A stretch of 64,000 nt of DNA from Nannocystis sp. RBIL2 (GTDB lineage Bacteria > Myxococcota_A > Polyangia > Nannocystales > Nannocystaceae): contig NZ_JAPNJW010000002.1 of the NCBI RefSeq assembly GCF_026626745.1, positions 1,190,151-1,254,150 on the forward strand. The letters are read 5' to 3'. The notes under the pieces were generated by a model. That model was not told the DNA's origin. It saw nothing but the letters and a program-made list of their open reading frames with translations, and searched no databases. Made by a program: the position numbers and the translations under genes. Of the stretch, positions 4,043 to 57,465 are shown in pieces (position 1 is the first letter of the stretch; each line of letters opens with the position of its first letter).

Positions 4043-4160
4043 GGGCATGTCCTCTGCGACATGCCCCATCGAACCTGACCTTTTTGCCATGCCCCGAGAG
4101 CCATCCGCGCTCTCGGGGTATTGCTATCTGTCCCGCAGGCCATGTCCCGCGGGACAGCGG
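4043..4160. repeat. cluster of GGACATGYCC-family elements plus palindrome CCGAGAGC-N7-GCTCTCGG
   Basis: GGGCATGTCC, GCGACATGCCCC, CCATGCCCC and TGTCCCGCGGGACA fill the whole 3'-3' intergenic space. Confidence 0.75.
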
Positions 4161-4161
4161 C

Positions 4162-5187
4162 TTAGATCCGCGTCTCGCTGCTCGCCAGGCGCTTCTTGCC
4201 GAGCATCCCCGCGGCGTCGAACCACTCGTAGATGTCGCGCACGCTGTCCGCGAACGGCCGGACCGTGTAGCCGAGCGCGCGCTCGGCCTTGCCGTGGTCG
4301 AAGCGCGCGCGCGTGGCCAGCACCGACAGCGACTCGTGGGTGTAGAGCGGCTCCTGCCGCATCACCGCGCCGGCGACCCCGAACAGCGGCACCCCGACGC
4401 GCGCGAACCAGATCGGCGCCACCAGCCGCGGCGGCTTCACGCCGGTGATCGCCTCGGCGATAGCTCCGATGTCGCGCACGTGCACCGTGTGCCCCGTCAG
4501 CAGGTAGTTCTCGCCGTTCTCGCCGCGGGCCTGCGCGGCCAGCATCCCGGCCACCACGTCGCGCACGTCGACGAAGTCGAACGCCCCGTCGATCAGGCTC
4601 GGCAGCGACCGCCGGTACAGCTGCAGGAACATCCGGCCCATGCGCGACGGTCCGAAGTCGTACGGCCCGATCACGCCCGAGGGATGCACGATCACAGCGT
4701 CGAGGCCGCGACCCATCACCTCGCGGAGCGCCCGCTCGCCGGCCGCCTTCGAGCGGTCGTAGGCGAAGTGGCTCGGCTCGTCGGGCACCCGCGGCCAGCG
4801 CTCGTCGACCTCCACGCCGCTCGTGCCCTCGCGGTAGAGGTCGAACGCGTGGACCGAGCTGCAGTGGACCAGCCGGCGCACGCCCGCGGCCAGCGCCGCC
4901 TCGGCGATCGAGCGCACGCCGTCGACGTTGACCGCGCGCACCAGCCCCCGCGGGTCGCCCGAGATCGAGATCTGGGCCGCGAGGTGATACACGACGTCGA
5001 CTCCCGCGGTCGCGCGGCGCGCCGCGTCCGGATCGCGCACGTCGCCGGTGACGCGTTCGACGTCGAGCCCCGCGAGCGCGCGCTGGGAATTGCGGACGAG
5101 CACGCGGACGCGCTCGCCGCGAGACAGCAACGTACGGACTAGATTCGCGCCGATGTGACCCGCGGCGCCGGTGACGAGGACGGTCAT
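4162..5187 (-). CDS. NAD-dependent epimerase/dehydratase (extended SDR) family protein
   Basis: ORF 4162..5373, Met at 5187 MTVLVTGAAGHIGANLV (Rossmann GxxGxxG); YxxxK region HFAYDRSK. Confidence 0.85.
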   Translation of the reverse strand: MTVLVTGAAGHIGANLVRTLLSRGERVRVLVRNSQRALAGLDVERVTGDVRDPDAARRATAGVDVVYHLAAQISISGDPRGLVRAVNVDGVRSIAEAALAAGVRRLVHCSSVHAFDLYREGTSGVEVDERWPRVPDEPSHFAYDRSKAAGERALREVMGRGLDAVIVHPSGVIGPYDFGPSRMGRMFLQLYRRSLPSLIDGAFDFVDVRDVVAGMLAAQARGENGENYLLTGHTVHVRDIGAIAEAITGVKPPRLVAPIWFARVGVPLFGVAGAVMRQEPLYTHESLSVLATRARFDHGKAERALGYTVRPFADSVRDIYEWFDAAGMLGKKRLASSETRI

Positions 5188-5275: not shown

Positions 5276-8200
5276 ATGTCGCGCGCCGGCGGTGATCCCA
5301 CCCCGCGGTCCTCCGGGCCGGACCCCGATCTCACGCTTGTCGGCGACCCTCCTCCGCGGCCGGATTTCGCCACCGACGAGACTCTGGCCGGAGATCTGTC
5401 GCCCCGCCCGCGGCCCCCCGCGAGCCCGCCGATCCCGCCGCTGGCCCTCGACCGCTCCTCGCTGTCGCAGCGCGAGCGCGCGCTTCAGCTCACCCGCTAC
5501 GTCCTCATGCGTCGCCTCGGCGCCGGCGGCATGGGTGTCGTCTACCTCGCCTACGACCCCAGCCTCGATCGCAAGGTAGCGATCAAGCTGCTGCGCGTGG
5601 CCCCCGGCGACGGCCCGGCCCAGGCCGCGCACGCCCGCCTGCTGCGCGAGGCCCAGGCGCTGGCCCGGCTGTCGCACGGCAACGTCGTCGCGGTCCACGA
5701 CGTCGGCAGCTACGACGCCGACGCCCTCACCACCATGCGGATCGGCCCACACCGCACGGAACCTGTCCCGAAGGACAGGATACCGCAGGCCGCCGGCGTG
5801 TTCCTGGTGATGGAGTACGTCCCCGGCATCACCCTCGCCCAGTGGCTCGACGACCGCGTCCGCGGCGTGCGCGAGGTCCTCGACGTGTTCCTCGCCGCCG
5901 GCCGCGGCCTGGTCGCCGCCCACGCCGTCGGCATCATCCACCGCGACTTCAAGCCCGGCAACGTCCTGGTCGGAGAGACAGGTCGGATCTGCGTGTTCGA
6001 CTTCGGCCTGGCGCGGCCCGCCGGCGAGGTCGAGCCGACGAGCCCCGCTGCTGCGCCCGACCCCGGCGCCCCGATCGATCCGCTGTCCTCGTCGCTGGTG
6101 TCCGGCCCGCTCACCCGCGTCGGCACCCTCGTCGGCACGCCGGCCTACATGGCCCCGGAGCAGCGGGGCGGCGCCGCGATCGACGAGCGCGCCGATCAGT
6201 TCAGCTTCTGCGTCGCGCTCTACGAGGGCCTGTACGGCAACCGCCCGTTCAGCGGCGACAACCTGTTCGCGCTCGAGGCGGCCAAGGCCCGCGGCCGCGT
6301 CGATCCGCCGCGGCGCCCCGCCAAGGTCCCGCCGGCGATCCACCGCGCCATCCTCCGCGGCCTCTCGGCTGAACCCGGGGACAGGTGGCCGTCGATGCAG
6401 GCGCTGCTCGACGCGCTCGAGCGGACGCTGCGGCGCGATCGCAGGCGCTGGGCCCTCGCCGGCGGCGGCGCGCTGCTCGTCGGCGGCGCCGTCGCCTTCG
6501 CTCTCGCCGGTGAAGCGCCCGCGCTGTGCACCGGGGCCGCCGAGGCGCTCGCGCCGACGTGGAACCCCGAGCGCCGCGCCGCCCTCGACGCCGCCTTCGC
6601 GGCCACCGGCCTGCCCTACGCCCCCGACGCGGCCGCGCGCGCCGGCGCGCGCGTCGACGCCTGGGCCGAGGCGTGGATCGCCGGCCACACCGACGCGTGC
6701 GCGGCGGCCAACATCCGCGGCGAACAATCACATGACCTTTTGGACAGGCGCATGCACTGCCTCGAGGATCGCCGCCACGAGCTCGACGCCCTGCTCGGCG
6801 TGCTCGCCGGGGCCGACGCCGACGCAGTCGCGCACGCCCACGACGCCGTCGAGGCCTTGCCGCCCCCGGCCCGCTGCGCCGACCTCGACGCCCTGCGCGC
6901 CGACGTCGCCCCGCCCGCGCCCGCGCTCGTCGAAGCGGTGCAGGGCCTGCGCGACCAGCTCTCGCTCGCCAGCGCCGAGGCTGCGACGGGCCACCCGGGC
7001 GCCGGTCTCAACCTGCTCGAGGCCGCCGAGCAGCGCTCGCGCGACCTCGGCTATCGACCGCTGCGCGCCGAGGTGCTGGCGCAGCTCGCCGACCAGCTGT
7101 TCGTCGCCAGCAAGTACGACGACTGCGTCCGCGTCTACGGCGAGGCCTACTGGGAGGCGCTCGCCGCCGGTCACGATCGCCTGGCCTTCGAGACAGCCAG
7201 CGGCTTCGCCGGCCGCCTGGCGCAGACCCTCGGCCACCCCGACGACGCCCAGCCGTGGCTGCGCCACGCCGAGGCCCTGCACGAGCGCCTCGGTCGCCCG
7301 CCCCGCCTCGGCGGTGACCTCGAGTTCCGCCGCGGCCAGATCGCCGAGGCCCGCCGCGAGTACGGCACCGCCATCGACCACTACCGCCGCTCGCTCGCCG
7401 ACCTGCCCGAGCGCTCGGTCCCCTCCGTCACCACCCGCCAGAACCTCGCCAACGTCCACCTCAGCCTCGGTCAGCTCGAGCCGGCGCAGATCATCTTCGA
7501 GGACCTGCTGGCCCTGCGCCGCGACATCTACGGCGAGGGTCACCCGAACAACGCCTTCTCGCTGGCCGACCTCGGCAACGTCGCCACCCTGCGCGGCGAC
7601 TTCGACACCGCCGAGAAGCACCAGCGCGCCGCCCTGACGATCCTCCGCGCCGCCCTGCCGCCGCGCCACGAGCGGCTCGCGTACCCGCTGTCGGCGCTGG
7701 CCGACATCGCCGCCCAGCGCGGCGACTTCGGCGAGGCCCTCGACGCCTACGAGGAGGCGCGGGCGATCTGGGAGCACAACTTCGGCCCGCTGAGCACCCG
7801 CGTGGCCGCCATGCTCGAGCGCCTCGCTTCGGTCCAGCAGGTGCGCGGCGAGCTCGGTCTGGCCGAGCAGCACGCCACCCGCGCGCTCGCCATCTGGAGC
7901 GCCGCGCAGAGCCCCGACCCCCAGGGCATCGTGCTGGCCCACCTCGCCCTGGCGCAGATCGAGCTCGCCCGCGACAACTACGCCGCCGCCCGCGACCACA
8001 CCGACAAGGCCTTGCCCCTGTCCGTCTCGGTGCTCGGCGAAGACAACCTCTATACCGCCGTCAGCCGGGCGATCCGGGGGGTCGCGCTCGCGGGCCTCGG
8101 CGATCTGTCGGCGGCCGAGCGCGAGGCCGACGCCGCAGTCGCGGCGATCGAGCGCAACTACGGCGGCGACTCGCTGTGGATGTCCGAGGTCCTGACCCCT

Positions 8201-10783: not shown

Positions 10784-10797
10784 CCTGGCCATCCGGC

Positions 10798-10860
10798 CAT
10801 GTCCTCTCCGACATTTTTAAGAGGACATGCTCCACCGAGCATGTCCTTTTAAACCTGTCC
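10798..10860. repeat. cluster of GGACATGYCC-family elements
   Basis: CCATGTCCTC, GAGGACATGCTC-cacc-GAGCATGTCC and CCTGTCC between genes; local GC drop (tttttaa, ttttaaa). Confidence 0.75.
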
Positions 10861-12719: not shown

Positions 12720-12752
12720 GAGAGGACATGTCCGTATGAACATGCCCTCTCG
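12720..12752. repeat. GGACATGYCC-family element
   Basis: AGAGGACATGtccgtatgaaCATGCCCTCT inverted repeat between convergent genes. Confidence 0.7.
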
Positions 12753-19570: not shown

Positions 19571-20314
19571 GTGAGCGGCCGGCGCTCGGACGGACCTGTC
19601 CCATCGGACACCCTCGCGGCCCTCGACCGCGCCCGCGACCAGGCCGGCCCGCACCTCTGGTTGGTCCCCACTCCGCCCGCCACCGGCGACGCCGACGACG
19701 CCCTGCGCGAGCTCGACGACCTGCTCGCCCGCGGCGAGTTCGACGAGCCCGCCGTCGCCCGCCTGGTGGCCCTGGCGCCGCGCGCCCCGGGCCGCCTGCG
19801 GGCCGTCGTGGCCGCCCTCGCGGCCGCAGGCAGCCCCGCCGCGGTGGCCGGCCTGCTCACCCTGCCGCAGGTCCCCGGCGCGCTCGAGGCGGCCGCCCGG
19901 GCCCTCGCCCGCGGCCTCACCCGCGCCCTGCCCGGCTCCGCCGCGGCGCCGGTGTTCTTCGCCCTCGACTTCCGCGGCTCGCGAGCGCGGCCGTTCCCGG
20001 ACCTGCTGCGGCGCGCCCAGCTGGTCGCCGCCGATCCGAGCGGCGCCCTCCGGCTCGACGTCCTCCGCGTCGACGGCAAGCCCGCCTACCGCCTGTCCTT
20101 TTGGCCAGACACGATCCCGCCGCGCCCGCGCGCCGAGCTCGCCCGCGCCTGCGCCGCCGACCTCGCGCTGCTCCACGGCCGCCTCGCGCGCCTCCGCGGC
20201 GCCCGCCTGTGGCTGAACGGCTTCTGCTTCCCTGACGACGGCCCGGTGTCGGTCGCCGCTCAGGGCCACCTGCTGGTCGCGTGGCTGACATGGTCTGAGG
20301 GACATGCCCCGTGA
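19571..20314 (+). CDS. hypothetical protein
   Basis: GTG start 1 nt after the smpB stop; high GC3; no recognisable motif. Confidence 0.5.
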   Translation: MSGRRSDGPVPSDTLAALDRARDQAGPHLWLVPTPPATGDADDALRELDDLLARGEFDEPAVARLVALAPRAPGRLRAVVAALAAAGSPAAVAGLLTLPQVPGALEAAARALARGLTRALPGSAAAPVFFALDFRGSRARPFPDLLRRAQLVAADPSGALRLDVLRVDGKPAYRLSFWPDTIPPRPRAELARACAADLALLHGRLARLRGARLWLNGFCFPDDGPVSVAAQGHLLVAWLTWSEGHAP

Positions 20315-21807
20315 GACATGACCCGAAAGACACTCCGTTCGCGCGCGCGCGCACCCGCCTGCGCGAGGCGCTGCAGGCCGGCGCCCGCGGCCTCGGCCTG
20401 CGCGCGGTCGACGAGGCGCGGGCGCTGCGGCTGTGCGAGGACACAGGCGAGCGGCTCGACTGGCCCGTCCACACCTGGAGCGCCGCCGGCGGGCGCGACG
20501 GCCTCGGCGCGCCCGAGCCGCTGCTCGACCTCCTGCGCGGCCTCCTGCGCGACCCCGATCCCGGTCTGTGGGTGCTGCTCGATCCGCCCCCGCTCGAGCC
20601 CGTCGCCCTGCGGGCCCTCCGCGAGCTCGCGCAGCGCAGCGTCGGTCCCGCGGTCGTCGTCGTCGGCGACCTCGCGCCTGCGCTCGTCGCCATCCCCGAG
20701 CTCGAGCTGCTGGAGCTCGAGCTGCCCGACACCGACGAGCTCACCGGCCTCGCGGCCGACCTCGTCGACGAGCTGCGGATCGCCGGCCGCCCCGGCCCCG
20801 CCGCCGCGCTCGACCGTCGCGCGCCGCAGCTCGCCCACGCCGCTCTCGGCCTGTCCGAGCACCAGGCCCGTCGACTGCTGCGCCGCGCCGCCCACGTCCC
20901 CGCCGACGACGCCGCGCTCGCCGAGCTGGGCGCCGGCAAGGCCGAGCTGCTGCGCCGCGGCGGCCTGCTCGAGCGCGTCGAACCTGTCTCTTCAGACATG
21001 CTCGGCGGCCTCGCGCAGCTCAAGCAGTGGCTGGCCCGCCGCGCGCTCGCCCTCCGCCCCGAGGCCCGCGCCGCGGCGATCCCCGACCCCCGCGGCGTCC
21101 TGCTCGTCGGCGTGCAGGGCTGCGGCAAGAGCCTGGCCGCCCGCGTCTGCGCCCACGCGCTCGGCCTCGGCCTCCTGCGGCTGGAGCCGGGCCGGCTCTA
21201 CGGCGGCACGCTCGGCGAGAGCGAGGCCAACCTGCGCCGCGTCACCGCGACGGTCGAGCGCATCGCTCCGGTCGCGCTGTGGATCGACGAGCTCGACAAG
21301 GGCCTGGCCGGCAGCGAGGGCCCGGCGAGCGACGGCGGCACCGCGGCGCGAGTGCTGGGCGGGCTGCTGACGTGGCTGCAGGAGCGCCGACGTCCGGTGT
21401 TCGTGGTCGCCACCGCCAATCAGGTCACGCGCCTGCCGCCCGAGCTGACACGTCGGGGCCGTCTCGACGAGATCTTCTTCGTCGACCTGCCCGACGCGGA
21501 CGAACGCGCTGCCATCGCGGAGATCCATCTCGAGCATGCGCCCCGCTCGCACATGGGCGCCGCCCCGGTCCTCGCTGATCCGTTGCCCGACCTCGTCGAC
21601 CTCGTACGCGCGGCCGACGGACTCTCGGGCGCCGAGATCGAGGGCGCGATCGTGGAAGCTCGCCTCGACGCGTTCGCCGAGTCGCGACCGCTCGCGCGCC
21701 GCGACCTCGCTCGCGCGCTCACCGCGACCATCCCGTTGAGTCGCAGTCGTGCCGGCGAAATCACGGCCCTGCGTGCGTGGGCGAGCGCTGCGGCCCGCAG
21801 GGCTTGA
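20311..21807 (+). CDS. classic-clade AAA+ ATPase with N-terminal domain of unknown function
   Basis: GTG start overlaps the upstream stop (GTGA); Walker A GVQGCGKS, Walker B ALWIDELD, second region of homology TRRGRLDEIFFVDLP; no GAFTGA motif, so not a sigma54 activator. Confidence 0.85.
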   Translation: MRHDPKDTPFARARTRLREALQAGARGLGLRAVDEARALRLCEDTGERLDWPVHTWSAAGGRDGLGAPEPLLDLLRGLLRDPDPGLWVLLDPPPLEPVALRALRELAQRSVGPAVVVVGDLAPALVAIPELELLELELPDTDELTGLAADLVDELRIAGRPGPAAALDRRAPQLAHAALGLSEHQARRLLRRAAHVPADDAALAELGAGKAELLRRGGLLERVEPVSSDMLGGLAQLKQWLARRALALRPEARAAAIPDPRGVLLVGVQGCGKSLAARVCAHALGLGLLRLEPGRLYGGTLGESEANLRRVTATVERIAPVALWIDELDKGLAGSEGPASDGGTAARVLGGLLTWLQERRRPVFVVATANQVTRLPPELTRRGRLDEIFFVDLPDADERAAIAEIHLEHAPRSHMGAAPVLADPLPDLVDLVRAADGLSGAEIEGAIVEARLDAFAESRPLARRDLARALTATIPLSRSRAGEITALRAWASAAARRA

Positions 21808-24265: not shown

Positions 24266-24839
24266 GCCCGAGCGCCGGCGCCCGGTCCGCTGGCGGCCCT
24301 GGCTGCGCGCCCTCCACCGCGACATAGGCTACGTCGCCGTCGGCCTCACCTTCGTCTACGCGCTGTCGGGCCTCGCGGTCAATCACATCGCCGACTGGGA
24401 CCCGAACTTCGACAACTACGAGGCGCGCCACCAGGTCGCCGTGCCGCTGCCCGAGGACGACCGCGCCGCCGCCGACAAGGTCCTCGCCGAGCTCTCCATC
24501 CAAGACCCGCCGACCGAGGTCTACCGCAGCGACGCGCGCGAGCTGTCGATCCTCCTCGACGGCAGCACCCTCCACGTCGACCTCGACAGCGGCGTCGTCC
24601 TCGAGGACGGCCAGCGCCCGCGCCTCTTGCTGCGCGTCGCCAACTGGCTGCACCTGAACCGCGGCAAGAAGGCCTGGACCTACATCGCCGACGGCTACGC
24701 CGTGTTCCTGCTGTTCCTCGCCGCCTCGGGCCTGTTCATGTTGCCCGGCCGCAAGGGCCTGGTCGGCCGCGGCGGCGTGCTCGTGCTGCTCGGGATCGCC
24801 GTCCCCGTGCTGTACGTGACCCTGTCCGGCGGGCCATGA
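24258..24839 (+). CDS. PepSY-associated TM-helix membrane protein (partner of the MsrP-like gene)
   Basis: ATG overlaps the upstream stop; WLRALHRDIGYVAVGLTFVYALSGL is a typical PepSY_TM helix; second TM near the C-terminus. Confidence 0.65.
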   Translation: MPEPERRRPVRWRPWLRALHRDIGYVAVGLTFVYALSGLAVNHIADWDPNFDNYEARHQVAVPLPEDDRAAADKVLAELSIQDPPTEVYRSDARELSILLDGSTLHVDLDSGVVLEDGQRPRLLLRVANWLHLNRGKKAWTYIADGYAVFLLFLAASGLFMLPGRKGLVGRGGVLVLLGIAVPVLYVTLSGGP

Positions 24840-24845
24840 CCCCAA

Positions 24846-24898
24846 GGACATGCCCCTTCGGGCATGTTCAAGAGGGCATGCCCTTACGGACATGCCCT
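24846..24898. repeat. cluster of four GGACATGCCC / GGGCATG half-sites
   Basis: AAGGACATGCCCcttcGGGCATGTTCaAGAGGGCATGCCCttacGGACATGCCCTCT. Confidence 0.75.
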
Positions 24899-27717: not shown

Positions 27718-27783
27718 CTGCAAGTGAGTGCTCACTCACCGTGCCACGGCTCCAGGACGGTTGCAAGTGAGTGCTCACTCAGG
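27718..27783. promoter_or_regulatory. putative TetR operator pair in the divergent promoter region
   Basis: Two identical copies of CTGCAAGTGAGTGCTCACTCA (27718-27740 and 27761-27783), each with dyad AGTGAG-TG-CTCACT, located between the monooxygenase start (27707) and the tetR start (27800). Confidence 0.5.
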
Positions 27784-27799
27784 CCAAGCTCTCGGGGTC

Positions 27800-28423
27800 A
27801 TGGCCACGCGCGAAGACGATCCAGGGCCGGTGCGCGGCGTCGAGCGCATCGTCCGCGCCGCGATCGAAGTGATCGCGGAGCGCGGCTTTCGAGGCGCCGC
27901 GACCAGCGAGATCGCTAGGCGGGCGGGCGTCGCCGAGGGCACGATCTTCCGCCACTTCAAGACCAAGCAGCTGCTGCTCGACCACATCCTCGAGCCGTTC
28001 GTCGAGCGGGTGCTCGCGCCCATCGCCTTCCGCGACCTGCACCGGCTGATCGACACCGACTACCCGGACTTCGCCGAATTCCTGCGGGAGTTCGCGCGCA
28101 ACCGCCTCGCGGTCGCGCGCGAGCACGTGCCGGCGCTGCGGATCTTCTTACAAGAAGTCCCGCTCAGCCCGGAGCTGCGGACGATGGTGTTCCGCCACAT
28201 CGGCCGCCACGTCATCCCCGAGCTGCTGGCAGTCATCCGCAAGTACCAGGCGCGCGGACAGATCCGGAACGACCCCCCGGAGACCGTCCTGCGGCTCCTC
28301 ATGAGCGCCCTGGGCGGCTACATCATCACGCGCCTGGCCATCCTGCCCGACTACCCGTGGGACGACGACCGCGAGATCGAGCTCACCATCGGCGCGATGT
28401 CCCGCGGCCTGCGCCCCGACTGA
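27800..28423 (+). CDS. TetR/AcrR-family transcriptional regulator
   Basis: ORF 27728..28423, Met MATRED at 27800; HTH GFRGAATSEIARRAGVAEGTIFRHFKTKQ. Confidence 0.85.
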   Translation: MATREDDPGPVRGVERIVRAAIEVIAERGFRGAATSEIARRAGVAEGTIFRHFKTKQLLLDHILEPFVERVLAPIAFRDLHRLIDTDYPDFAEFLREFARNRLAVAREHVPALRIFLQEVPLSPELRTMVFRHIGRHVIPELLAVIRKYQARGQIRNDPPETVLRLLMSALGGYIITRLAILPDYPWDDDREIELTIGAMSRGLRPD

Positions 28424-29000
28424 CCTGTCCTCTCGGGCCAGCCTCAGACGCGCGCCCTCAGGACGTCGCCTCACCTGTTCCTGAGGTCCTGTCCTTTCGA
28501 ACAGCCTCTCGCGCGTTCTAGCGACGTCATCTCGCGGAACCCGGAGTCTGCCGACACAGCGCCTGTCCTTTCGACCAGCCTCACGAGCTCTCGAGACCGC
28601 CGAGGTACCGGTCGCATCGCTATCTCACTCGGAGCTCGGACTCTGCCCGGCACCCTTCTGTCCTCTCGACCAGCCTCACGCGCGATCCTCGGACGTCACC
28701 TCACTCGGAACTCGGACTCTGCCCGGCACCCTCCTGTCCTCTCGACCAGCCTCACGCGCGCTCCTCGGACGTCACCTCACTGGGCACTCGGACTCTGCCC
28801 GAAGCACACCTGTCCTTTCGACCATCACGCGCGTGCTGCAGGCGTCATCTCACGCGGAACTCGGAGCCTGCACGTCGAGCTCCTGTCCTTTCGACCAGCC
28901 TCCCGCGCGCGCCCCCGAGATGTCCGCCGCACGCCTGAGCCTGCCTGACGACGTCCTGCCCTTCTCACAGTCTCACGTACGCACCCGCCGGACGTCGCCT
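28424..29000. repeat. degenerate intergenic tandem array, about 8 units of 65-95 nt, each beginning CCTGTCCTYTCGAMCAGCCTC
   Basis: Read directly: units start at about 28424, 28488, 28562, 28657, 28733, 28809, 28883, 28956; units 4 and 5 are about 90% identical; no ORF with coding-like codon usage. Confidence 0.8.
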
Positions 29001-29073
29001 TGTTCCTGCTCCTGCCCCTCAGCAGCTGGTTCGGCCTCCTGCGCCCGCGCGCCGCGGTGCTACTCTGGCGCAC

Positions 29074-30780
29074 GTGTTCGGCTCGCTCCCGCCGCCGCCG
29101 CGGCGCTACTTGCCCGCGCGCGTGCGCCTCGATCGGCTCGCCGATCTCGAGGCCTGCTACGGCGAGCTCGGCGCGCGACCGTTGCCGGCCGACGATCCAT
29201 GGATCCTCGAGCAATGGCTACGCGACTGGTCCGAGCTCGAGAGCCACCTCGCCGAGGCCCAGGCGCGGCGACAGATCGCCACCAGCTGCAGCGCCGACGA
29301 GCCCGAGGCTGCGCGCGCCTGGCTCGTCCACGTCGACGTCCTCGGCCCCGCCTGCAAACCGCTGCGCCACGGCCTCACGCGGCGGCTCGTCGAGCACCCG
29401 GCGGCAGCTCGCCTCCCGCCCGGCCACGCCTGCGCCCTCGCGGTGCTGCGCAACCAGGCCGACCTCCACCGCCCCGCCCTCGTCCCGCTCGAGGCCGCCG
29501 AGCAGCACCTGTGCGCTGCCTACGGCCAGCTGCGGGCCGGCATGCGGTTCCCCTGGGACGGCGCCGACACTCCGCTGGCCCACGTCGAGCGCAGCGAGGA
29601 CGACCCTGACCGTTCGCGGCGCGAGGCCGCCTGGCGCACCGTCGCGGCCGAGTTCCGCGCAGTGAAGCCCGAGCTCGACCACCTGTTCGACCGCCTCCTC
29701 GACAACCGCAGGGCCCAGGCCGCCGCCGCCGAGCTGCCCGAGTACCGCGCCTATCGCTTCCGCCGCCTCGACCGCCTCGCCTACGGCCCCGCAGACTGCC
29801 TCGCGCTGCACGAGGCCATCGCCGCCGAGTTCGTCCCCCTCGCCGGCCTCGTCCTCCGTCGCCGCGCCGCCGCCCTCGGCCTCGACGTCCTGCGCCCGTG
29901 GGACCTCGGGGCCCTGCCCGGCGGCCCGCTCGTCCCGTTCACCCGCGAGGAGGCGCTGATCGCCGGCTGCGCCCGCGCCTTCGAGGCCGTCGACCCCGAG
30001 TTCGCCCGCCAGTTCTCGCGCCTCGCCGAACATGGCCTTTTGGACCTGATGTCGAGGCCAGGCAAGGCCGCCGGCGCCTTCCAGGTCCACCTCCACGCCA
30101 GCGGCCTCCCCTTCGTGTTCGCCGGCGCCGTCGGCCGCCACGAGGACGTGCTCACCGTCTTGCACGAGTCCGGCCACGCCTTCCACGCCCTCGCCTGCGC
30201 CGGCGATGCGCTGATCTGGAACCGCCAACCCCCGATCGAATTCTGCGAGGTCGCCGGCATGGGCATGGAGCTGCTCGCCGCCGCTCACCTGGGCGCCTTC
30301 TACGACGCCGACACCTGCACCCGCGCGGCGCGCCACCAGCTCGAGCAGCTCGTCCTGTTCCTCCCGCACGCCGCCGCCATCGACGCCTTCCAGCACTGGG
30401 TCTACACCCGCCCCGACGAGGCCAGCGACCGTGTGGCTCGCGACGCCGCCTGGCTCGCGCAGCACGGGCGGCTGTGCCCCGGCGTCGACTGGAGCGGCCT
30501 CGAGGCCGACCGCGCCGCCCTGTGGGGGCGTCGCCTGCACGTGTTCGAGCTGCCCTTCTACTACATCGAGTACGCGATCGCCGGCCTCGGCGCAGTGCAA
30601 CTCCACCGCCGCGCCCTCGCCGAGCCCGCCGCCGCCGTCGCCGACCTCCGCCGCGCCCTCGCCCTCGGCGCCCGCGCCCGCCTGCCCGACCTGTTCGCCG
30701 CCGCCGGTCTGAACTTCGGGACAGATCGCAGCACCGTGCGCCGGGCCGCCGCCGCCTGCCGCGAGCTCCTCGACCTGTGA
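29074..30780 (+). CDS. pepF: M3-family oligoendopeptidase F
   Basis: GTG start; zinc-binding HESGHAFH (HExxH) and overall PepF-like length and pattern. Confidence 0.8.
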   Translation: MFGSLPPPPRRYLPARVRLDRLADLEACYGELGARPLPADDPWILEQWLRDWSELESHLAEAQARRQIATSCSADEPEAARAWLVHVDVLGPACKPLRHGLTRRLVEHPAAARLPPGHACALAVLRNQADLHRPALVPLEAAEQHLCAAYGQLRAGMRFPWDGADTPLAHVERSEDDPDRSRREAAWRTVAAEFRAVKPELDHLFDRLLDNRRAQAAAAELPEYRAYRFRRLDRLAYGPADCLALHEAIAAEFVPLAGLVLRRRAAALGLDVLRPWDLGALPGGPLVPFTREEALIAGCARAFEAVDPEFARQFSRLAEHGLLDLMSRPGKAAGAFQVHLHASGLPFVFAGAVGRHEDVLTVLHESGHAFHALACAGDALIWNRQPPIEFCEVAGMGMELLAAAHLGAFYDADTCTRAARHQLEQLVLFLPHAAAIDAFQHWVYTRPDEASDRVARDAAWLAQHGRLCPGVDWSGLEADRAALWGRRLHVFELPFYYIEYAIAGLGAVQLHRRALAEPAAAVADLRRALALGARARLPDLFAAAGLNFGTDRSTVRRAAAACRELLDL

Positions 30781-30995
30781 CGATATCTGTCCCTCAGGAC
30801 ATCTCGCTGCGGCGTCGGCCCTGCGATGTCAGATGTCCCGAAGGGCATTTCGCTGCGGCGTCAGCCCTGCGATGTCAGATGTCCCGAAGGGCATTTCGCT
30901 GCGGCGTCAGCCATGCCGCTGACGGCCCCACGCGACCTGTCCTTCGAGCCAGCTCGCGGCAGCCGGCCGGCCTGCCGCGAGCTCCTCGACCTGTG
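30755..30995. repeat. 25-bp direct repeat (CCTGCCGCGAGCTCCTCGACCTGTG) flanking a 191-bp insert with an internal 48-bp tandem duplication
   Basis: Copy 1 at 30755-30779 is the last codons of pepF; copy 2 at 30971-30995; the insert carries GGACA/TGTCC palindromes and two copies of CGCTGCGGCGTCAGCCCTGCGATGTCAGATGTCCCGAAGGGCATTT. Confidence 0.8.
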
Positions 30996-30997
30996 GC

Positions 30998-32233
30998 TCA
31001 CTCGTACGCCGTCACGTACATGTGATAGGTCTCGAAGTCGACCGCGCCGGACGCGAAGATCGTCCCCGCGTCGTCGATCGCCACGTCGACCTCCCATGAC
31101 CCGCTGTCGCAGCGGTGCGCCGCCAGCGTCGCGCCGGACGGGTCGAGCCGCGCCACCATCCCGCGGAACGGCGTGTCGTTGTTGTGGTGGCCGCCGACCG
31201 CGATCTCGCCGCTCGCGTTGACCGCGAGGTCGCCGAAGCTCCACATGTCCTCGACATGCGTGTCCCACAGCGGCGTCCCGTCGGCCGCGAACTTCTCGAT
31301 CCTCACTCCCGACGACCCGATCTGAGCCCCGACCACCACCGCGCCCGCGCCGTCGATCGCCGCCGTGCTGAGCACCGAGAGCTCCCACGGGCGCGTCCAC
31401 AGCTCCTCGCCGGACGGGTCGAGCAGCCGGACGCCCTCGTTCCACACCAACGCCACCATCGTGCCCGCCGACCCGATCGCCGCCACCTCGAGTTGGTCCG
31501 CGACCTCGAGGTCCCACAGCAGCGTCCCGTCGGCCGCGTGCTTGACCATCCGCGTCCCGTCGCCGACGGCAGCGCGGTCGCTGTACACCGTCGTCCCGTC
31601 GGCCGCGATCGCTACGCCGTAGCCCGACCAGAAGCCCTGATCGCTCGGTCCCAGGTCGCTCTCCCACAGCATCGTCCCCGCCGGGTCGAACTTGCGCAGC
31701 CACTTCCGCGGCGACACGCCGCCCTCGTCGCGGAACATCGCGTAGCCGTTGCCCGCCGCGTCGATGTCCCAGTAGATCGCACCCGACGGGATCGGCAATG
31801 TCGCCACCAGCGTCCCTGCCGCGTCGAACTCGCGCGTCAGACCGTCGCTGAACACCCGCGCCCGCCCGTCGGCCGCGAGCGACACCTTGCCCGCGCCGCT
31901 GGTCTCCGGATTGACGAACAGCCACGCGCCGCCCTCGCACGCGAAGTCCTCCGGCGTCGACCCCGAGTCGGTGTCGTGCCCTCCCGATGTCGTCTCGGTC
32001 GTCGCGTCGCCCGGATCGTCGGTCGTCTCGTCCGGTCCGCCGGTCGTCTCCGGCACGCCGGTCGTCCCCTCGCTGTCAGTCCCGCCGCCCCCCGACGTCC
32101 CGTCGCTGTCGCTCCCGCCCGTGGTCGTCCCCGCGCTGAGCGTCCCGCCCGTGACCCCCGGGTCCTTCGGATCGCAACCTGTCACAACAGCCATGAATCC
32201 AAGGACATGTCCAATATACCATGTTCTAAGCAT
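30998..32233 (-). CDS. lipoprotein with beta-propeller-like repeats
   Basis: ORF 30998..32272, Met MLRTWYIGHVLGFMAVVTGC at 32233 (lipobox VTGC) preceded by GAGGAG RBS; Thr/Gly-rich linker, then repeated WD/PQQ-like blades. Confidence 0.7.
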   Translation of the reverse strand: MLRTWYIGHVLGFMAVVTGCDPKDPGVTGGTLSAGTTTGGSDSDGTSGGGGTDSEGTTGVPETTGGPDETTDDPGDATTETTSGGHDTDSGSTPEDFACEGGAWLFVNPETSGAGKVSLAADGRARVFSDGLTREFDAAGTLVATLPIPSGAIYWDIDAAGNGYAMFRDEGGVSPRKWLRKFDPAGTMLWESDLGPSDQGFWSGYGVAIAADGTTVYSDRAAVGDGTRMVKHAADGTLLWDLEVADQLEVAAIGSAGTMVALVWNEGVRLLDPSGEELWTRPWELSVLSTAAIDGAGAVVVGAQIGSSGVRIEKFAADGTPLWDTHVEDMWSFGDLAVNASGEIAVGGHHNNDTPFRGMVARLDPSGATLAAHRCDSGSWEVDVAIDDAGTIFASGAVDFETYHMYVTAYE

Positions 32234-41103: not shown

Positions 41104-41150
41104 AGGACATGTCGCGGTGGACATGTCGTGACAGACATGTCCCTCAGGAC
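41104..41150. repeat. cluster of GGACATGTC elements
   Basis: AGGACATGTCgcggtGGACATGTCgtgacAGACATGTCCCTCAGGAC. Confidence 0.75.
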
Positions 41151-42813: not shown

Positions 42814-43695
42814 GTGCCCAGCGGCGCGTCTCCCCTCGCTCGCCCGGTCGCCGTCGTCGGCGCCGGCTTCCTCGGCGCCCCCGTCGCTGCCGCGCTCGCG
42901 GCGACCGGGGGCGCTGGCGATCCGCCTGTCCTTGCGACCACGCGCTCCGGGACATGGCCCAACGGACATGTCCCGGAGGGCATCGAGCTCCGCCCGCTCG
43001 ACGTCGCCGCGCTCACCCCTGCCGACATCGCCGCGGTCCTCGCCGACGCGCGTGCGCTGGTCGTCTGCTACGCCCCCGGCCAGCAGCAGGACCGCCGCGA
43101 GCTCTACGTCGAGGGCACCCGTCGGCTGCTCGCGGCCGCAGTCACCCTCCCGCTCACCCGCCTCGTCTACGTCTCATCCACCTCGGCCCTGCCCGACCGC
43201 GATGGCTGGCTCGACGACGACTGCCTCGAGTGGCCCGAAGAGCCGCGGGGCCGCGTGCAGCGCGAGGCCGAGGAGCTGGTGCGCGACACCTGCACGCGCC
43301 ATGCGGTGCCGTGGACGATCCTCCGTCTCGGCGGCCTCTACGGTCCGGGTCGCGAGCTGTTCCGCCTCTACCGCGGCGCCGGCGACGACGCAGTCCTGGC
43401 GGGCGACGGCATGCAGCCGACCAACCTCATCCACTGCGAGGACGCAGTGCAGGCCGTCCTCGCCGCCTTGACCCTCGCGCCGGACGAGCGCGGCGTCATC
43501 AACGTCGTCGACGACGACCACACCCCGCGGCGTGAGATCTTCGCTCGCCTCGCCGCCCTCGCCGGACGGCCGCCCCCCCGATGGGAGCGGCCCGCGGGTC
43601 CGGCCGCGATCGGCAAGCGGGTCGGCAACGCGCGCCTGAAGACGCTGCTGCGCGTGGCCCTCCGGCATCCCTCTCACACCCCGGCGAGCCCCTGA
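42814..43695 (+). CDS. NAD(P)-binding Rossmann-fold protein (SDR/epimerase-like)
   Basis: GTG start at 42814 in the frame of ORF 42250..43695; VAVVGAGFLG motif; carries an in-frame hairpin element at 42947-42976. Confidence 0.6.
   Translation: MPSGASPLARPVAVVGAGFLGAPVAAALAATGGAGDPPVLATTRSGTWPNGHVPEGIELRPLDVAALTPADIAAVLADARALVVCYAPGQQQDRRELYVEGTRRLLAAAVTLPLTRLVYVSSTSALPDRDGWLDDDCLEWPEEPRGRVQREAEELVRDTCTRHAVPWTILRLGGLYGPGRELFRLYRGAGDDAVLAGDGMQPTNLIHCEDAVQAVLAALTLAPDERGVINVVDDDHTPRREIFARLAALAGRPPPRWERPAGPAAIGKRVGNARLKTLLRVALRHPSHTPASP
42947..42976. repeat. perfect 10-bp stem hairpin CCGGGACATG-N10-CATGTCCCGG inside a CDS (in-frame)
   Basis: Encodes SGTWPNGHVPEG within the NAD(P)-binding protein. 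Confidence 0.75.
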
Positions 43696-44637: not shown

Positions 44638-45125
44638 GCCAAACGAAAGCGCGACGGCTCAGCGGCGCCAGCGCCTGTAAATCAAGATTAGAAGCTCTGC
44701 TTCGAGTCGCACCGCTGTTCGAAGCAGAGTTGACCTACTGCGCCCGAGACGATCGAGGGCGCAGCAGACCCGACAGCAGGCCAGCGGCTTCGCGTCGAGC
44801 TATCCGCTCCGTGAGGCTCACGTGCGCCTCGTTGGACGGCCCCTGGCCTGACTGCCTCCCTGCGTCGTTCGAAGCATCCTCGCTCCGGCAACACGCGTTC
44901 GCTGTGGCGCTCGCCGGTCCGCGCGCAGCGGAGCATCGCCTGTACCTCCCGGGATCGCCACCGAGCCGGCGCGAACCGACGAACCGCCGCTGACGACGAG
45001 CGCCGGCCTCGAGGCCCTGGAGCCGCGGCTTCAGGGGCGCGTCGTGCGTGCGAGGTCGACGTCACGGATCTCGCCTCGCGAACGGGTTCACGGCGGGCGC
45101 GACCCTGGTATGCTCCGCGCCCGCC

Positions 45126-45662
45126 ATGGCCGCCCCACCCGAACCCACACGCGGACCGCGGATCGCCCTCGCAGCGGTGATCGCCGGTCTCAGCCTCGGC
45201 CTCGACCTTTGGAGTAAGGCGTGGGTCTGGAACAATTTGCGGGACCAGGCCGCCTGGAAGGTCAGCGACAAGCTGCTGCACTTCGACTTCGCCTGCAATC
45301 CCGGCTCTGCCTTCGGCTTCCTCAACGACGTCGACTGGGCGCGCTACTTCTTCATCGTCATCACCCTGGCCGCGGTCGGCTACCTCGTCCACCTCGCGCG
45401 GACCTTGCCGACCACCAGCCGGGCCGCCTTCATCGCCATCGGCCTGATCGCCGGCGGCGCCCTCGGCAACCTGCACGACCGCCTGGTCCGGGTCTACGCC
45501 GGCGACTACTGCGTGGTCGACTTCATCGTCGTCTACCTGTGGGGCGGCAAGACCTGGCCGGCCTTCAACATCGCCGACGCCGTCCTGGTCGCGGGCGTGC
45601 TGTTGTTCCTGCTCGTGCTGCCGCGCACCGAGGCCGCCGCCGACAATCGGACCGCCGCCTGA
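45126..45662 (+). CDS. lspA: lipoprotein signal peptidase II, copy 1
   Basis: ORF 45048..45662, Met MAAPPEP at 45126; LspA signatures NPGSAFGF, GGALGNLHDRL, FNIADA; 4 TM segments. Confidence 0.85.
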   Translation: MAAPPEPTRGPRIALAAVIAGLSLGLDLWSKAWVWNNLRDQAAWKVSDKLLHFDFACNPGSAFGFLNDVDWARYFFIVITLAAVGYLVHLARTLPTTSRAAFIAIGLIAGGALGNLHDRLVRVYAGDYCVVDFIVVYLWGGKTWPAFNIADAVLVAGVLLFLLVLPRTEAAADNRTAA

Positions 45663-45985
45663 GCCTCGTGCGGCCCCAAGCGTCGAGGCAACCATCTGCC
45701 TGAGTCTCTTGCGGCCACCCCCGACAATCGGACCTCCGCCTGAGCCGCGAGCTCTCGCGCCGCGAGGCAGCCGTCATCGGACCTTCGCCCGGACCCTCGA
45801 GCTGCCCCTCAGGGCACCGAGGCGGCGCCCGACAATCGGGCCTCAGCCTGAGCCATGAGCTCTCGCCCCGAGGCAGCCGTCATCGGACCTTCGCCCGAAC
45901 CATCGAGCTCCCGCCCCAGGGCACCGCGGCCACCCCCGGACCTCCCCTCAGCCTCGAGCTCCCGCTCCGGACCTGCCTCGTCCTG
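45636..45985. repeat. tandem repeat (about 110 nt x2 plus partial copies) seeded from the 3' end of lspA copy 1
   Basis: CCGACAATCGGACC(G/T)CCGCCTGAGCC occurs at 45643 (last codons of lspA), 45722 and 45836; full units 45717-45828 and 45829-45934. Confidence 0.8.
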
Positions 45986-46160
45986 CTGCGCCCCGGGCCG
46001 CCGCCGGTCGAACCCGCCAGAGCACCGCGGCAACCGCGCTACCGAACCCGCAACCCTGCCCGGCAGCCCTTCGGACCGTCTCTGCGGCCCGCGGCGCAGC
46101 GGTGGCTGCGCTTGCTCGCCCTGGTGCCTCGGGTACACTGGCCAGGTTTTTCGGCCCTAC

Positions 46161-46745
46161 ATGAGCGACACGCCAGCATCGAACCGGCTCCGGCCGATCC
46201 TCGTCACCGCGTCCGCAGCCGCGGTGTTTCTGATCCTCGATCTCGTGACCAAGAGCTGGGCCTGGGACAACCTCCGGCCGCCGAACCGGCAGATTGCCGC
46301 GATCGGCAACTGGTTCCACTGGTCCTACAGCTTCAACACCGGCTCCGCCTTCGGCTTCCTGCGCGGCCAGGACTTCTCGCGTCCCCTGTTCATCGTCGTC
46401 ACCCTCGTGACGGTGGTCTACATGGCCGCCCTCGTCCGCAAGCTGCCGACCGACCGCCTCTACGGCTTCTTCGCCATCGGCTGCATCATCGGCGGCGCCC
46501 TCGGCAACATGCACGACCGCCTGCTGCGCCAGGACTCCGACCCCCACGGCAACCTCACCCACGGCGTGGTCGACTTCATCCGCGTCTGCTCCCCGTGGAA
46601 CCCTCGCGGTCTGTGCTGGCCGAACTTCAACGTCGCCGACATCGCCCTCGTCGTCGGCGTCCTGCTGCTCATCCCTTACTTGATGTTCCACGCGCAACCG
46701 CCGGAAATCAAAGAAAATACGCCCGATGCAAAGCCCGCCAGCTGA
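46161..46745 (+). CDS. lspA: lipoprotein signal peptidase II, copy 2 (paralogue)
   Basis: ORF 45855..46745 trimmed to Met MSDTPASNRL at 46161 (the upstream part runs through the tandem repeats); NTGSAFGF, GGALGNMHDRL, FNVADIA. Confidence 0.85.
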   Translation: MSDTPASNRLRPILVTASAAAVFLILDLVTKSWAWDNLRPPNRQIAAIGNWFHWSYSFNTGSAFGFLRGQDFSRPLFIVVTLVTVVYMAALVRKLPTDRLYGFFAIGCIIGGALGNMHDRLLRQDSDPHGNLTHGVVDFIRVCSPWNPRGLCWPNFNVADIALVVGVLLLIPYLMFHAQPPEIKENTPDAKPAS

Positions 46746-53952: not shown

Positions 53953-56105
53953 TCCGCCCGCGCGCCGCCGCCTCGCCTGCGCCCGCGTCGGCGAGCGGCG
54001 TCGTCGCGCTGGGTGTCTCGGCGAGTAACCTGGCCCAAAGCGCCTGCGACGGCCCGGCGCTGGACGTCGTGTCGCGCGAGCTGGCGTCGCCGCTTCGCGG
54101 CTTCAGGGTCCGTGCGAGCTCCTCGCTCGAGCTCGCGGGGCAGGACTTCCCGCTGCACCCGCCCGCTTCGGCCATGCCAGGCGTCGACGAGATGTCTGCG
54201 AGCTCCTCGCTCGCGGTCGTCTCGCCGCCTCTACTTCTTCGCGGCTTCGAAGCAAGCACTTGCACTGGGCTTGAGGTCGCGTCGCTGCGCTCGTCCGCTT
54301 CGGTCGACGAGACGCCGACGAGTTCGCCGCGCGAGGCCGCGTCGCCGCTTCCACTTCTCTGCCGCTTCGAAGCAAGCGCGAGCACTCGGCTCGAGGTCGC
54401 GTCGCTGCGGTCGACCGCCTCGGTCATGCAAGTTGTCGGCGAGACGCTGGCGAGCTCCTCGCGCGAGGCCGCGTCACCGCTTCCACTTCCTCGCGACTTC
54501 GAGGCAAGCGCGAGCACCCGGCCCGAGGTCGCGTCGCCGCTTCCGCCCGCTTCGGTCATGCGTGGTGTCGACGAGACGCTGGCGAGCTCCTCGCCCGAGG
54601 CCGCGTCACCGCTTCCACTTCCTCGCGACTTCGAGGCAAGCGCGAGCACCCGGCCCGAGGTCGCGTCGCCGCTTCCGCCCGCTTCGGTCATGCGTGGTGT
54701 CGACGAGACGCCGGTGAGCTCCGCGCCCGAGATCGCATCGCCGCTTCTTCGCAATTTCGACGCGAGCGCGAGCTCCTCGCCCGAGTCCCTGTCGCAGGAC
54801 GTCGCCCTGCGGCTGTCCACTTCGGTCGTCTCGCCGCTCCCACTCGCCCGCGTCGCGCACGCGAGCTCGCCGCTCCCTCGTCGCAACTTCCTCCGCGCCG
54901 CGCTCTCGCCCGCAGCGCCTTGCGTCCTCTTCTTCGCGCTCGGGCTCGGCTGCGGGGCCCCTCCGACGGGAGTGCGCGCCGAACCGGGGACGCTGGTGTT
55001 CACGCCGGCGGCGCAGCGTCTCGAGCTGCGACTCGTGAATCACGGCGCGGCGCCCGTCCCGTTGACGCGGATCCGCTTCGACACCCGCACCCCCGACTGG
55101 GGCGCCTTCTCGATCGAGAACCGCGAGTACCCGCGGGAGATCGCTGCTGGCGGAGCCGTGAGCCTGCGCCTCCGCGTCGACCGCGACCACTTCGATCGCA
55201 CCGGCGCCTCCGGCTCCGGCAGCGCGCGCCTCCTCTTCGCGGCGGGAGAGGCGCCCCAGATCGTCGAGCTCCGCTGGGAGCCACCCGATCTCGCGAGCGA
55301 TCTGCGGCGCACGGCGATCCGCACCGCCCTGGCGCTCGCGCTCGTCGCGCTGGCGTGGATCTCGACGCGCCGCACCCGGCTGAACTGGACCGCCTGGCTG
55401 CCGGTGGTGGCCGTCCTGGCGCTGTTCCCGTTCGGTCCGGGCCTGTGCTTCGACGGCCTCGGCAGCAGCCTTTCCGCCGCGGACGTCGAGCAGTGCGCCG
55501 CGGGACGGGGAGGTGCTTCGCTGTCGCTGATCGCCGTCGGCGAAGGCTGGCTCGTCTATCTCGTCGCCCTCGTGCTCGCCGGTCTCGGTCGCCTCGTCGA
55601 CCGGGCTGCGCTGGCCCGCCGCCTGGCGTCGCGCGACCTCGCCCTCGCCGCCGCATTCGCCGGCCCTTTGCTGGCCTTTGGCACCCTCGATCCACGGCAG
55701 CTCGTGGGGGAGCAAGCAGCGGGGCTCGTCGGCGGTGCTGCGATCCCCCCCGCCTGGGGAATCTTCGTGCAACCGATCGCCGCTGCCGTCGCCCTCGCGG
55801 TCGCGGCCGCGCCGCCGGCAGGACGGCTCGAGCGGCTCGTCTTCGCGGCGGCGTTCGTCGCCTGTTTCCTCGGCGGTGGTGTGCCCGCGACGGTACTCGC
55901 CGGCAGCGGCCACGGCCTCGTGCTGTTCATCGGCGCAGTCGTGGCGGCGGCGAAGATCGCTGCGGTCGTGTGGTTCGTGCAGCGGCTGCACGCGTCGGCC
56001 ACCGGCTCGCGTGCGCGCGCCGCTCTCTTCTTTCTCGAGCGGGCCGCGATGCCCCTGGCGATCGCCAATCTGCTGGCGACGTCGGTCTACGCCCTGCTGT
56101 GGTGA
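53949..56105 (+). CDS. repeat-containing protein with Tat/lipobox-like internal signal and a multi-TM C-terminal domain (start uncertain)
   Basis: ATGA overlap with the upstream gene; frame open through the 120-bp repeat array; PRRNFLRAALSPAAPCVLFFALGLGC looks like a twin-arginine lipoprotein signal; C-terminal 300 aa has at least 6 hydrophobic helices; the true start may lie downstream of the repeats. Confidence 0.45.
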   Translation: MIRPRAAASPAPASASGVVALGVSASNLAQSACDGPALDVVSRELASPLRGFRVRASSSLELAGQDFPLHPPASAMPGVDEMSASSSLAVVSPPLLLRGFEASTCTGLEVASLRSSASVDETPTSSPREAASPLPLLCRFEASASTRLEVASLRSTASVMQVVGETLASSSREAASPLPLPRDFEASASTRPEVASPLPPASVMRGVDETLASSSPEAASPLPLPRDFEASASTRPEVASPLPPASVMRGVDETPVSSAPEIASPLLRNFDASASSSPESLSQDVALRLSTSVVSPLPLARVAHASSPLPRRNFLRAALSPAAPCVLFFALGLGCGAPPTGVRAEPGTLVFTPAAQRLELRLVNHGAAPVPLTRIRFDTRTPDWGAFSIENREYPREIAAGGAVSLRLRVDRDHFDRTGASGSGSARLLFAAGEAPQIVELRWEPPDLASDLRRTAIRTALALALVALAWISTRRTRLNWTAWLPVVAVLALFPFGPGLCFDGLGSSLSAADVEQCAAGRGGASLSLIAVGEGWLVYLVALVLAGLGRLVDRAALARRLASRDLALAAAFAGPLLAFGTLDPRQLVGEQAAGLVGGAAIPPAWGIFVQPIAAAVALAVAAAPPAGRLERLVFAAAFVACFLGGGVPATVLAGSGHGLVLFIGAVVAAAKIAAVVWFVQRLHASATGSRARAALFFLERAAMPLAIANLLATSVYALLW
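54060..54900. repeat. tandem array of about 7 units of about 120 nt (two adjacent near-identical copies at about 54453-54572 and 54573-54692)
   Basis: Unit GAGACGCTGGCGAGCTCCTCGCNCGAGGCCGCGTCACCGCTTCCACTTCCTCGCGACTTCGAGGCAAGCGCGAGCACCCGGCCCGAGGTCGCGTCGCCGCTTCCGCCCGCTTCGGTCATGCGTGGTGTCGAC; all six frames stay open across it. Confidence 0.85.
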
Positions 56106-57426: not shown

Positions 57427-57465
57427 TGTCCTGAGGGACATGTCCTCACGGGCATGTCCCTCGGC
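57427..57465. repeat. GGACATGYCC-family element
   Basis: CTGTCCtgaGGGACATGTCCtcacGGGCATGTCCC downstream of the DUF4388 gene. Confidence 0.75.

Follow-up and report, generated by a model that had tools for sequence, protein, structure and literature searches.

The window analysed here is a stretch of 64,000 nucleotides (nt) from Nannocystis sp. RBIL2 (contig NZ_JAPNJW010000002.1, positions 1,190,151 to 1,254,150 of the forward strand; G+C content 71.6%), and this study concerns a repeated gene end within it. A pepF-like gene at 29074-30780 on the + strand encodes an M3 oligoendopeptidase of 568 amino acids (aa), as identified from its open reading frame (ORF), a match to Pfam PF01432 (E 6e-29) and homologues; the protein is identical to WP_267708075.1 of Nannocystis sp. 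ILAH1 except for a GTG start. It is met tail to tail, at 30998-32233 on the - strand, by a convergent orphan gene of 411 aa from the first Met, recognised by its ORF and translation, with a lipoprotein-like N-terminus (...VVTGC) and a G+C content at third codon positions of 0.90. A Pfam search with the protein of this second gene gave no match. The two stop codons are 217 nt apart, and the end of pepF occurs a second time in the spacer between them.

The two copies, designated DR1 and DR2 (direct repeats 1 and 2), are perfect repeats of 26 nt (GCCTGCCGCGAGCTCCTCGACCTGTG). DR1 (30754-30779, + strand) is the end of pepF up to, but without, the final A of the TGA stop, and encodes the conserved C-terminus ...ACRELLDL. 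DR2 (30970-30995, + strand) is a non-coding copy in which the pepF stop has decayed to TGG and is followed by C, and its end is 2 nt short of the stop codon of the convergent gene (30998-31000). With up to 3 mismatches allowed, the repeat has exactly two matches in the 64 kb and none in 100 shuffled sequences. The initial annotation of this DNA, made from its letters alone, had reported a perfect repeat with a start-to-start spacing of 216, and both points hold; the repeat is however 26 rather than 25 nt long, and 190 rather than 191 nt lie between the copies. It did not remark on the position of DR2 beside the second stop codon, or on the hairpin that DR2 can form, described below.

The sequence between the copies is made up of modules, all given here on the + strand. 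Directly after pepF is a first hairpin module (30781-30819; −5.7 kcal/mol), composed of TGTCCCTCAGGACA (30788-30801) and a tail, TCTCGCTGCGGCGTCGGC, which at 78% identity reads as a diverged first copy of a 46-nt unit and was found in every relative of the N. pusilla group. The unit itself follows as a perfect tandem duplication of about 2.07 copies (30818-30912), each with TGTCCCGAAGGGCA. Positions 30818-30866 and 30864-30912 match exactly over 49 nt at offset 46, a further upstream copy (30774-30824) is 76-78% identical, and Tandem Repeats Finder (TRF) gave 30788-30916 with a period of 46 and 2.8 copies. The 48-bp tandem duplication (30803-30850 and 30851-30898) described in the initial annotation therefore gives way to one of period 46, while the GGACA/TGTCC palindromes that it placed between the copies were found, as TGTCC-N4-GGACA, at 30788-30801 (perfect), 30834-30847 and 30880-30893 (one mismatch each). 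A small G+C hairpin at the 3' edge of the array (GTCAGC-CATGCC-GCTGAC, 30906-30923) was read from the sequence and is paired in the predicted folds. The last module (30932-30969) contains a weak palindrome, CTGTCCTTCGAGCCAG (30937-30952), and an inverted copy of the repeat, a' (AGCTCGCGGCAG, 30951-30962), which can pair over 12 of 12 nt with DR2 across a 9-nt loop, or with DR1 in a long-range stem (17 nt, 94%).

The pepF locus was compared in 12 other Nannocystaceae genomes or contigs, seven of which carry the convergent gene (N. pusilla L001, L009 and L091; the Logan contigs L002 and L092; N. exedens L008; N. punicea L010) and five of which do not (L003 to L007). A second copy of the pepF end is present in all seven of the former and always directly abuts the stop of the convergent gene, and the flanking coding sequence is nearly identical. 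The spacers measure 91 nt (L001), 162 nt (L009), 177 nt (L091), 130 nt (L002), 91 nt (L092), 264 nt (L008) and 234 nt (L010), as compared to 217 nt in the window. In all eight loci the last copy is continued by a TGA-like triplet, a C and TCA (...CCTGTGA-C-TCA... or a near variant); the triplet is TGA in four of the seven relatives, one base off in the others (GGA, TGT), and TGG in the window. Among the loci without the convergent gene, four (L003, L004, L006 and L007) have one copy only, which is the pepF end itself, and in L005 the pepF end is too diverged for a match. As the second copy is present wherever the convergent gene is, and is lacking in these four loci without it, the repeat is old, shared and tied to that gene, and it is not an assembly artefact. 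In N. radixulma (L003), a sequence at about 8010 was considered as a remnant of the repeat and rejected, since it belongs to a conserved region upstream of an M28 peptidase gene. A metagenome scan for the junction TGACTCACTCGNACGCNGTC returned six matches, all by chance, in unrelated contigs of 48-64% G+C.

The convergent gene appears from its homologues to be restricted to the N. exedens/pusilla/punicea group: only six homologous clusters were found, three of them named (N. pusilla, N. exedens and N. punicea) and three from Logan contigs. It is missing from L003, L004, L005 and L007, and in L003, L004 and L007 it is absent from between pepF and the M28 peptidase gene. About 180 nt upstream of the M28 gene are conserved and intact in genomes with and without the convergent gene, which points to its clean gain or loss.

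The clearest form of the repeat is found in N. punicea. The spacer of L010 is without foreign sequence and consists of two head-to-tail copies of about 117 nt, each made up of the last ~93-102 nt of pepF, one base, and the last ~22 nt of the convergent gene. Compared with a reconstructed junction (the last 102 nt of pepF, a C, and the last 22 nt of the convergent gene), positions 4724-4848 of this locus match at 113 of 125 positions without a break (z 44), and positions 4849-4941 are a second copy of the pepF part (85/97). Both carry a GACCTCC variant that is specific to the pepF of L010 itself, so either the event was specific to this lineage or the copies have been homogenised. In N. exedens (L008) there are four units that likewise span the junction but are shorter and more decayed, matching at 54/66, 38/48, 41/54 and 22/25 positions.

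The window and the N. pusilla group have between them five distinct spacers, which align colinearly and are set apart by entire modules; in order these are the first hairpin module, the 46-nt units, and the last module, with a' and DR2. L009 shares the last module of the window without change, and L091 shares it with a difference of 1 nt. The 46-nt unit is lacking in L001 and L092, single in L009 and L091, and double in the window, so the perfect duplication in the window is a recent, strain-specific slip, whereas the 26-nt repeat is common to several species. DR2 is imperfect in the relatives; it matches DR1 at 24 of 26 positions in L001, and has one deletion and one substitution in L009. The DR2 of the window has a T where L001, L002, L091 and L092 have a G, and L009 is deleted at this position. 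A CTG/CTC difference in DR1 is a widespread synonymous polymorphism. The perfect identity of DR1 and DR2 in the window is partly luck or short-tract conversion. The interior of the L002 spacer is homologous to both gene ends (p 0.001 and 0.008), and includes a perfect 16-nt inverted match to pepF, CTTCGGGACAGATCGC.

On these observations, namely the geometry in the relatives, the variation in copy number and the lack of mobile-element features, the 26-nt repeat is very probably what a recurrent tandem duplication across the junction of two tail-to-tail genes has left behind, and not the footprint of a mobile element. We infer that pepF and the convergent gene would ancestrally, in the N. exedens/pusilla/punicea group, have stood one base apart (...CTC GAC CTG TGA-C-TCA CTC GTA...), in a state without a spacer (...CTCGACCTGTGA-C-TCACTCG...), because the internal copies keep the pepF TGA, one base, and the TCA of the other gene. 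Replication slippage or unequal exchange may then have duplicated a segment spanning the junction. Such a duplication would be harmless, as the first copy would end pepF and the last copy would end the convergent gene, and the partial ends between them would become a non-coding spacer. DR2 would be the pepF fragment of the terminal copy, and would therefore always abut the stop of the convergent gene. Events of this kind would have given the ~117-nt units of N. punicea, the ~56-nt units of N. exedens and an older event in the window and the N. pusilla group; the variant specific to L010 and the different unit sizes (~117, ~56 and 46 nt) argue that the junction was duplicated independently or repeatedly. 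The interior in the window and the N. pusilla group would later have been remodelled by deletions, possibly by inverted copying of the pepF end (giving a'), and by more slippage, of which the perfect 46-nt duplication would be the latest step. Slippage had been offered as one of two possibilities in the initial annotation, and this part is upheld, although the process is older and larger than was supposed and the thing duplicated is the junction of two convergent genes.

The copying of gene ends is not confined to pepF. The 3' end of each of 48 window genes was compared with the 350 nt downstream of it, and only pepF (z 12.5) and lspA (z 10.2) stand out. The window has two tandem lspA (signal peptidase II) paralogues at 45048-46745, both with the Pfam domain Peptidase_A8. 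The end of the first (45048-45662), with its TGA, has been copied within a 106-nt tandem repeat upstream of the second (45640-45854, + strand): positions 45640-45665 recur at 45721-45746 with 1 mismatch and at 45829-45854 with 3 mismatches. By comparison, the TetR-like gene at 27728-28423 has no copy of its 3' end downstream (z −0.8). When the genes of the related loci were treated in this way, the only z above 5 besides pepF was that of the convergent orphan gene in L010 (7.5; 4.7 in L008), which reflects the same junction copies, and all other genes were below 5, the highest being a convergent pair in L004 (4.9 and 4.4). The lspA case had been put forward as a second example in the initial annotation, and it is borne out, as is the suggestion of a recurrent process, both within the window (2 of 48 genes) and across lineages at the pepF junction. 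The data support a process of tandem duplication that happens to straddle a stop codon.

Several points weigh against this origin for the window spacer itself. An unexpanded 1-nt junction was found neither in the window nor in the 12 Nannocystaceae loci, and the ancestral state is for this reason a reconstruction. In the window, similarity to pepF reaches only ~12 nt past the 26-nt repeat, and with gaps; beyond this, neither gene end has significant similarity to the 190-nt interior (p 0.08-0.09), although in another test, of the last module against pepF positions −110 to −27, a marginal similarity was seen (p about 0.015). As this homology is only marginal, a gene-end origin of the window interior is not claimed from the window and is drawn from the other species. 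Furthermore, DR2 is far better preserved in the N. pusilla group than the interior is, which can be accommodated only by further assuming gene conversion from DR1, selection for a hairpin of a' and DR2, or replacement of the interior.

Whether DR2 has been kept for a function is a matter of maintenance and not of origin, and a functional hairpin is compatible with the tandem duplication. With a', DR2 is predicted to form a strong hairpin 13 nt past the stop of the convergent gene, which could act as a terminator or 3'-end stabiliser, possibly in both directions, or could compete with the long-range stem of DR1 and a' in the pepF transcript; that stem appears in the predicted minimum free energy fold. 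Such a role is possible, if somewhat doubtful. The a'/DR2 fold has −33 kcal/mol on either strand (z −3.2 to −4.5), the whole spacer folds better than shuffled sequences (z −4.7 and −4.2), and the hairpin occurs in all relatives of the N. pusilla group, where DR2 and a' are the best conserved parts of an otherwise highly variable spacer, but conservation is to be expected anyway among such close relatives. Two one-sided changes stay paired, as G.U, on the RNA strand of the convergent gene only; compensatory covariation was however seen in 0 of 20 pairs, and a' is not present in the spacers of N. punicea and N. exedens. A terminator scan of 30500-31300 found no sites, and no T run (U-tract in the RNA) follows the hairpin on either strand. 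A promoter scan of the spacer region found nothing, and Rfam gave no match at gathering thresholds in the whole window and none at E<=1 in 30700-31050. A role as a 3'-end structure of a non-canonical type is plausible on the predicted folding; the repeat can be explained without any function, and the hairpin may serve only incidentally as a 3'-end or terminator structure of the convergent gene.

The palindromes of the spacer are local instances of a 14-nt-periodic motif of gene 3' ends that is found throughout Nannocystis, and which is more unusual than the pepF repeat. Sites resembling GGACATGTCC (a 10-bp palindrome, equivalently TGTCC-N4-GGACA; up to 2 mismatches) number 44 in the window against 7 expected, a 6-fold over-representation. 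When two sites are no more than 60 nt apart, their distance is a multiple of 14 in 22 of 23 pairs, and the exception is 46. Of 45 palindrome matches, 19 (about half) are in non-coding sequence within 150 nt of a preceding stop codon, and such sequence accounts for 6.9% of the window. Arrays in the 14-nt register are found at 1886-1909, 4043-4066, 10795-10846, 12724-12747, 20300-20323, 24832-24897, 41105-41142, 42950-42973 and 57436-57459 of the window, and at 7722-7800 of L004. Most Nannocystis-related loci have 0.65-1.6 sites per kb, with two lower (0.26 and 0.41), and 14-nt-periodic pairs were seen in the window and in L001, L003, L004 and L006; by contrast, 1.25 Mb of unrelated control loci had 0.14 sites per kb and no periodic pairs, the window being about 5-fold denser. 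Four species retain the array in one orthologous spacer between convergent genes, with differences in the 4-nt linkers and in the number of units. In the more distant relative L005 (about 225-265) the period is unchanged but the motif, GGCCATGAAC, is not palindromic, a hint that the arrays may bind a protein rather than form RNA hairpins. Literature searches turned up no report of the palindrome from bacteria, and none of repeats of this kind from Nannocystis or other myxobacteria; the palindrome gave p53 and unrelated eukaryotic papers.

These arrays suggest another source for the interior in the window and the N. pusilla group, which would not come from gene ends but would have been seeded by the genome-wide TGTCC-N4-GGACA motif, whether like the repetitive extragenic palindromic (REP) elements or a putative protein-binding 3'-end motif, and amplified by slippage between two older copies of the pepF end. 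Besides the strong enrichment of the palindrome just 3' of stop codons across the window, its occurrence directly after the pepF stop in two loci without the convergent gene (L004 and L006), its absence from the L008 and L010 spacers, and the lack of significant gene-end similarity in the interiors of the window, L001 and L091 fit such an origin. We nevertheless regard it as unlikely, as the other sites share the 14-nt core only, with no extended similarity, the hairpin of L002 contains a perfect 16-nt inverted match to pepF coding sequence, and we know of no mechanism that spreads so short a motif. In comparison to REP elements and bacterial interspersed mosaic elements (BIMEs), the arrays are alike in being short palindromes clustered between convergent genes, variable in number between strains and abundant at gene 3' ends. 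They differ in having a 14-nt core only, a strict 14-nt register and a non-palindromic form in L005, and no REP-associated transposase turned up, although no search was aimed at one.

The other possibility offered in the initial annotation was the insertion of an element with an unusually long target duplication. In this case a non-autonomous element of ~190 bp, similar to a miniature inverted-repeat transposable element (MITE), would have inserted at the pepF end and duplicated 26 bp of its target. The likeness to the target-site duplications of transposable elements is that direct repeats, here perfect, flank a structured, hairpin-rich segment, and the interior of the window spacer is not significantly similar to the flanking genes. 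The repeat here, though, includes the end of one gene and, in all relatives that have the second gene, lies directly beside that gene, and its 26 bp are far beyond the 2-15 bp that are usual for target duplications. When 30745-31000 was searched for inverted repeats from 6-nt seeds, only the pairs of the repeat with a' and copies of the hairpin motif came up; the ends of the interior do not pair, and so there are no terminal inverted repeats inside the direct repeats. Neither the 46-nt unit nor the first or last module (~20% substitutions allowed) has another copy in 162 kb, comprising the 64-kb window and the ~98 kb of the 12 Nannocystaceae loci. An empty site in related genomes was likewise not found: the site is filled in all seven relatives with both genes, by colinear spacers of 91-264 nt that differ in internal modules, and the genomes with a single copy are those without the convergent gene. 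No integrase or transposase family is present within about 6 kb in the gene tables of the annotated relatives. Without terminal inverted repeats, other copies in the 162 kb or an insert-free site, a target-site duplication is not supported. Moreover, the copies in L010 and L008 stand head to tail with nothing between them and include the ends of the genes on both sides, an arrangement that cannot arise by target-site duplication, and we regard an insertion as very improbable. Integrative elements are known to duplicate the 3' end of their target gene, as with attL and attR at tRNA genes or e14 in icd, and here also a gene 3' end occurs twice while the gene stays intact. The pepF case differs from these in that there is no integrase, the copies flank 63-240 nt of repeats and no element, and the convergent gene is not enclosed by the two copies.

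A collapsed or mis-joined repeat in the assembly, which might be suspected from the 46-nt duplication being perfect and present in the window only, is the least credible explanation, as seven other loci, from different strains and species and including two complete genomes, have the 26-nt repeat in the same position, and unit copy numbers of 0, 1 and 2 are expected of a slippage-prone repeat. No GTTRRRY-type core sites of an integron attC are visible in the spacer, and no repeat-spacer structure of the CRISPR type.

Tandem duplication across the junction has counterparts among known systems. The spacers resemble repeats that arise by slippage or unequal exchange (variable-number tandem repeats, or minisatellite-like repeats) in their head-to-tail copies, perfect newest unit and strain-variable copy number, and, on a reading by eye, in a breakpoint in L010 with little or no shared sequence. 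They differ in that the unit spans the stops of two convergent genes, so that the repeats are former coding ends, and in recurring at one junction in at least two or three lineages. The tandem-duplication/random-loss model was developed for the rearrangement of mitochondrial genomes, in which spacers hold pseudogene remnants; similarly, a boundary-crossing duplication here leaves the outer copies intact and the partial copies decay to spacer. In the present case, however, gene ends of tens of nt and no whole genes are involved, the gene order is unchanged, and the host is a bacterium with a genome of 11-13 Mb.

Some further features of these loci were recorded. The pepF gene is split or truncated in the ORF calls of two N. 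pusilla assemblies (L001, 5522-7227, 196 + 408 aa; L091, 4375-5241, 288 aa), owing either to a frameshifted pseudogene or to sequencing errors; elsewhere it is intact at 568 aa. In L005, a contig from a metagenome of a more distant member of the Nannocystaceae, four tandem copies of a ~29-nt unit (GCGCACGGCCGTCGATCCGCTTCGATCGT) lie 3' of pepF at about 5760-5880, and this array is another lineage-specific tandem expansion at the pepF end. Upstream of pepF, the 650-nt spacer that follows the TetR-like gene (28424-29073) contains ~4-5 copies of a 76-nt tandem repeat with the core CCTGTCCTYTCGACCAGCCTC; at 30936-30953 the last module of the pepF spacer contains this core again, at 3 mismatches. 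According to the gene tables of the relatives, the spacer that corresponds to the one upstream of pepF measures 45 nt for N. radixulma and 100-545 nt for the others. Between the TetR-like gene and a divergent FAD-monooxygenase-like gene, a perfect 20-nt direct repeat, TGCAAGTGAGTGCTCACTCA, with the palindrome TGAGTGCTCACTCA, occupies 27719-27738 and 27762-27781, and is probably a putative pair of TetR operator sites. Elsewhere in the window, positions 54303-54747 hold 3.4 copies of a 132-nt tandem repeat, including a 116-nt perfect match, and at 60339-61434 a number of exact repeats (18-38 nt), all offset by 818 nt, suggest the tandem duplication of a gene-sized segment, or adjacent paralogues.

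The pepF repeat is in itself of little weight, being the product of an ordinary mechanism in an instructive setting. It does provide a well-documented case of a non-coding spacer made from the duplicated ends of two genes whose stops, as reconstructed here, would once have been one base apart. Because such spacers turn over between strains, that of pepF could be used as a strain marker. It is also a caution for genome scans, as a long perfect direct repeat that holds a gene end need not be a target-site duplication, and a few relatives settle the question. The more interesting lead is provided by the palindrome arrays in 14-nt register just 3' of Nannocystis stop codons. It is conceivable, though we think it rather improbable, that Nannocystis systematically makes and keeps 3'-end spacers, with duplications at the junctions of abutting convergent genes being fixed time and again and then converted to the genus-specific, 14-nt-periodic arrays of the GGACATGTCC type that would follow most stop codons. 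If this were true, the arrays would be an undescribed class of 3'-end element, either a binding array for an unknown protein or an unconventional terminator, and the pepF spacer would be a snapshot of the birth of such an element from coding sequence.

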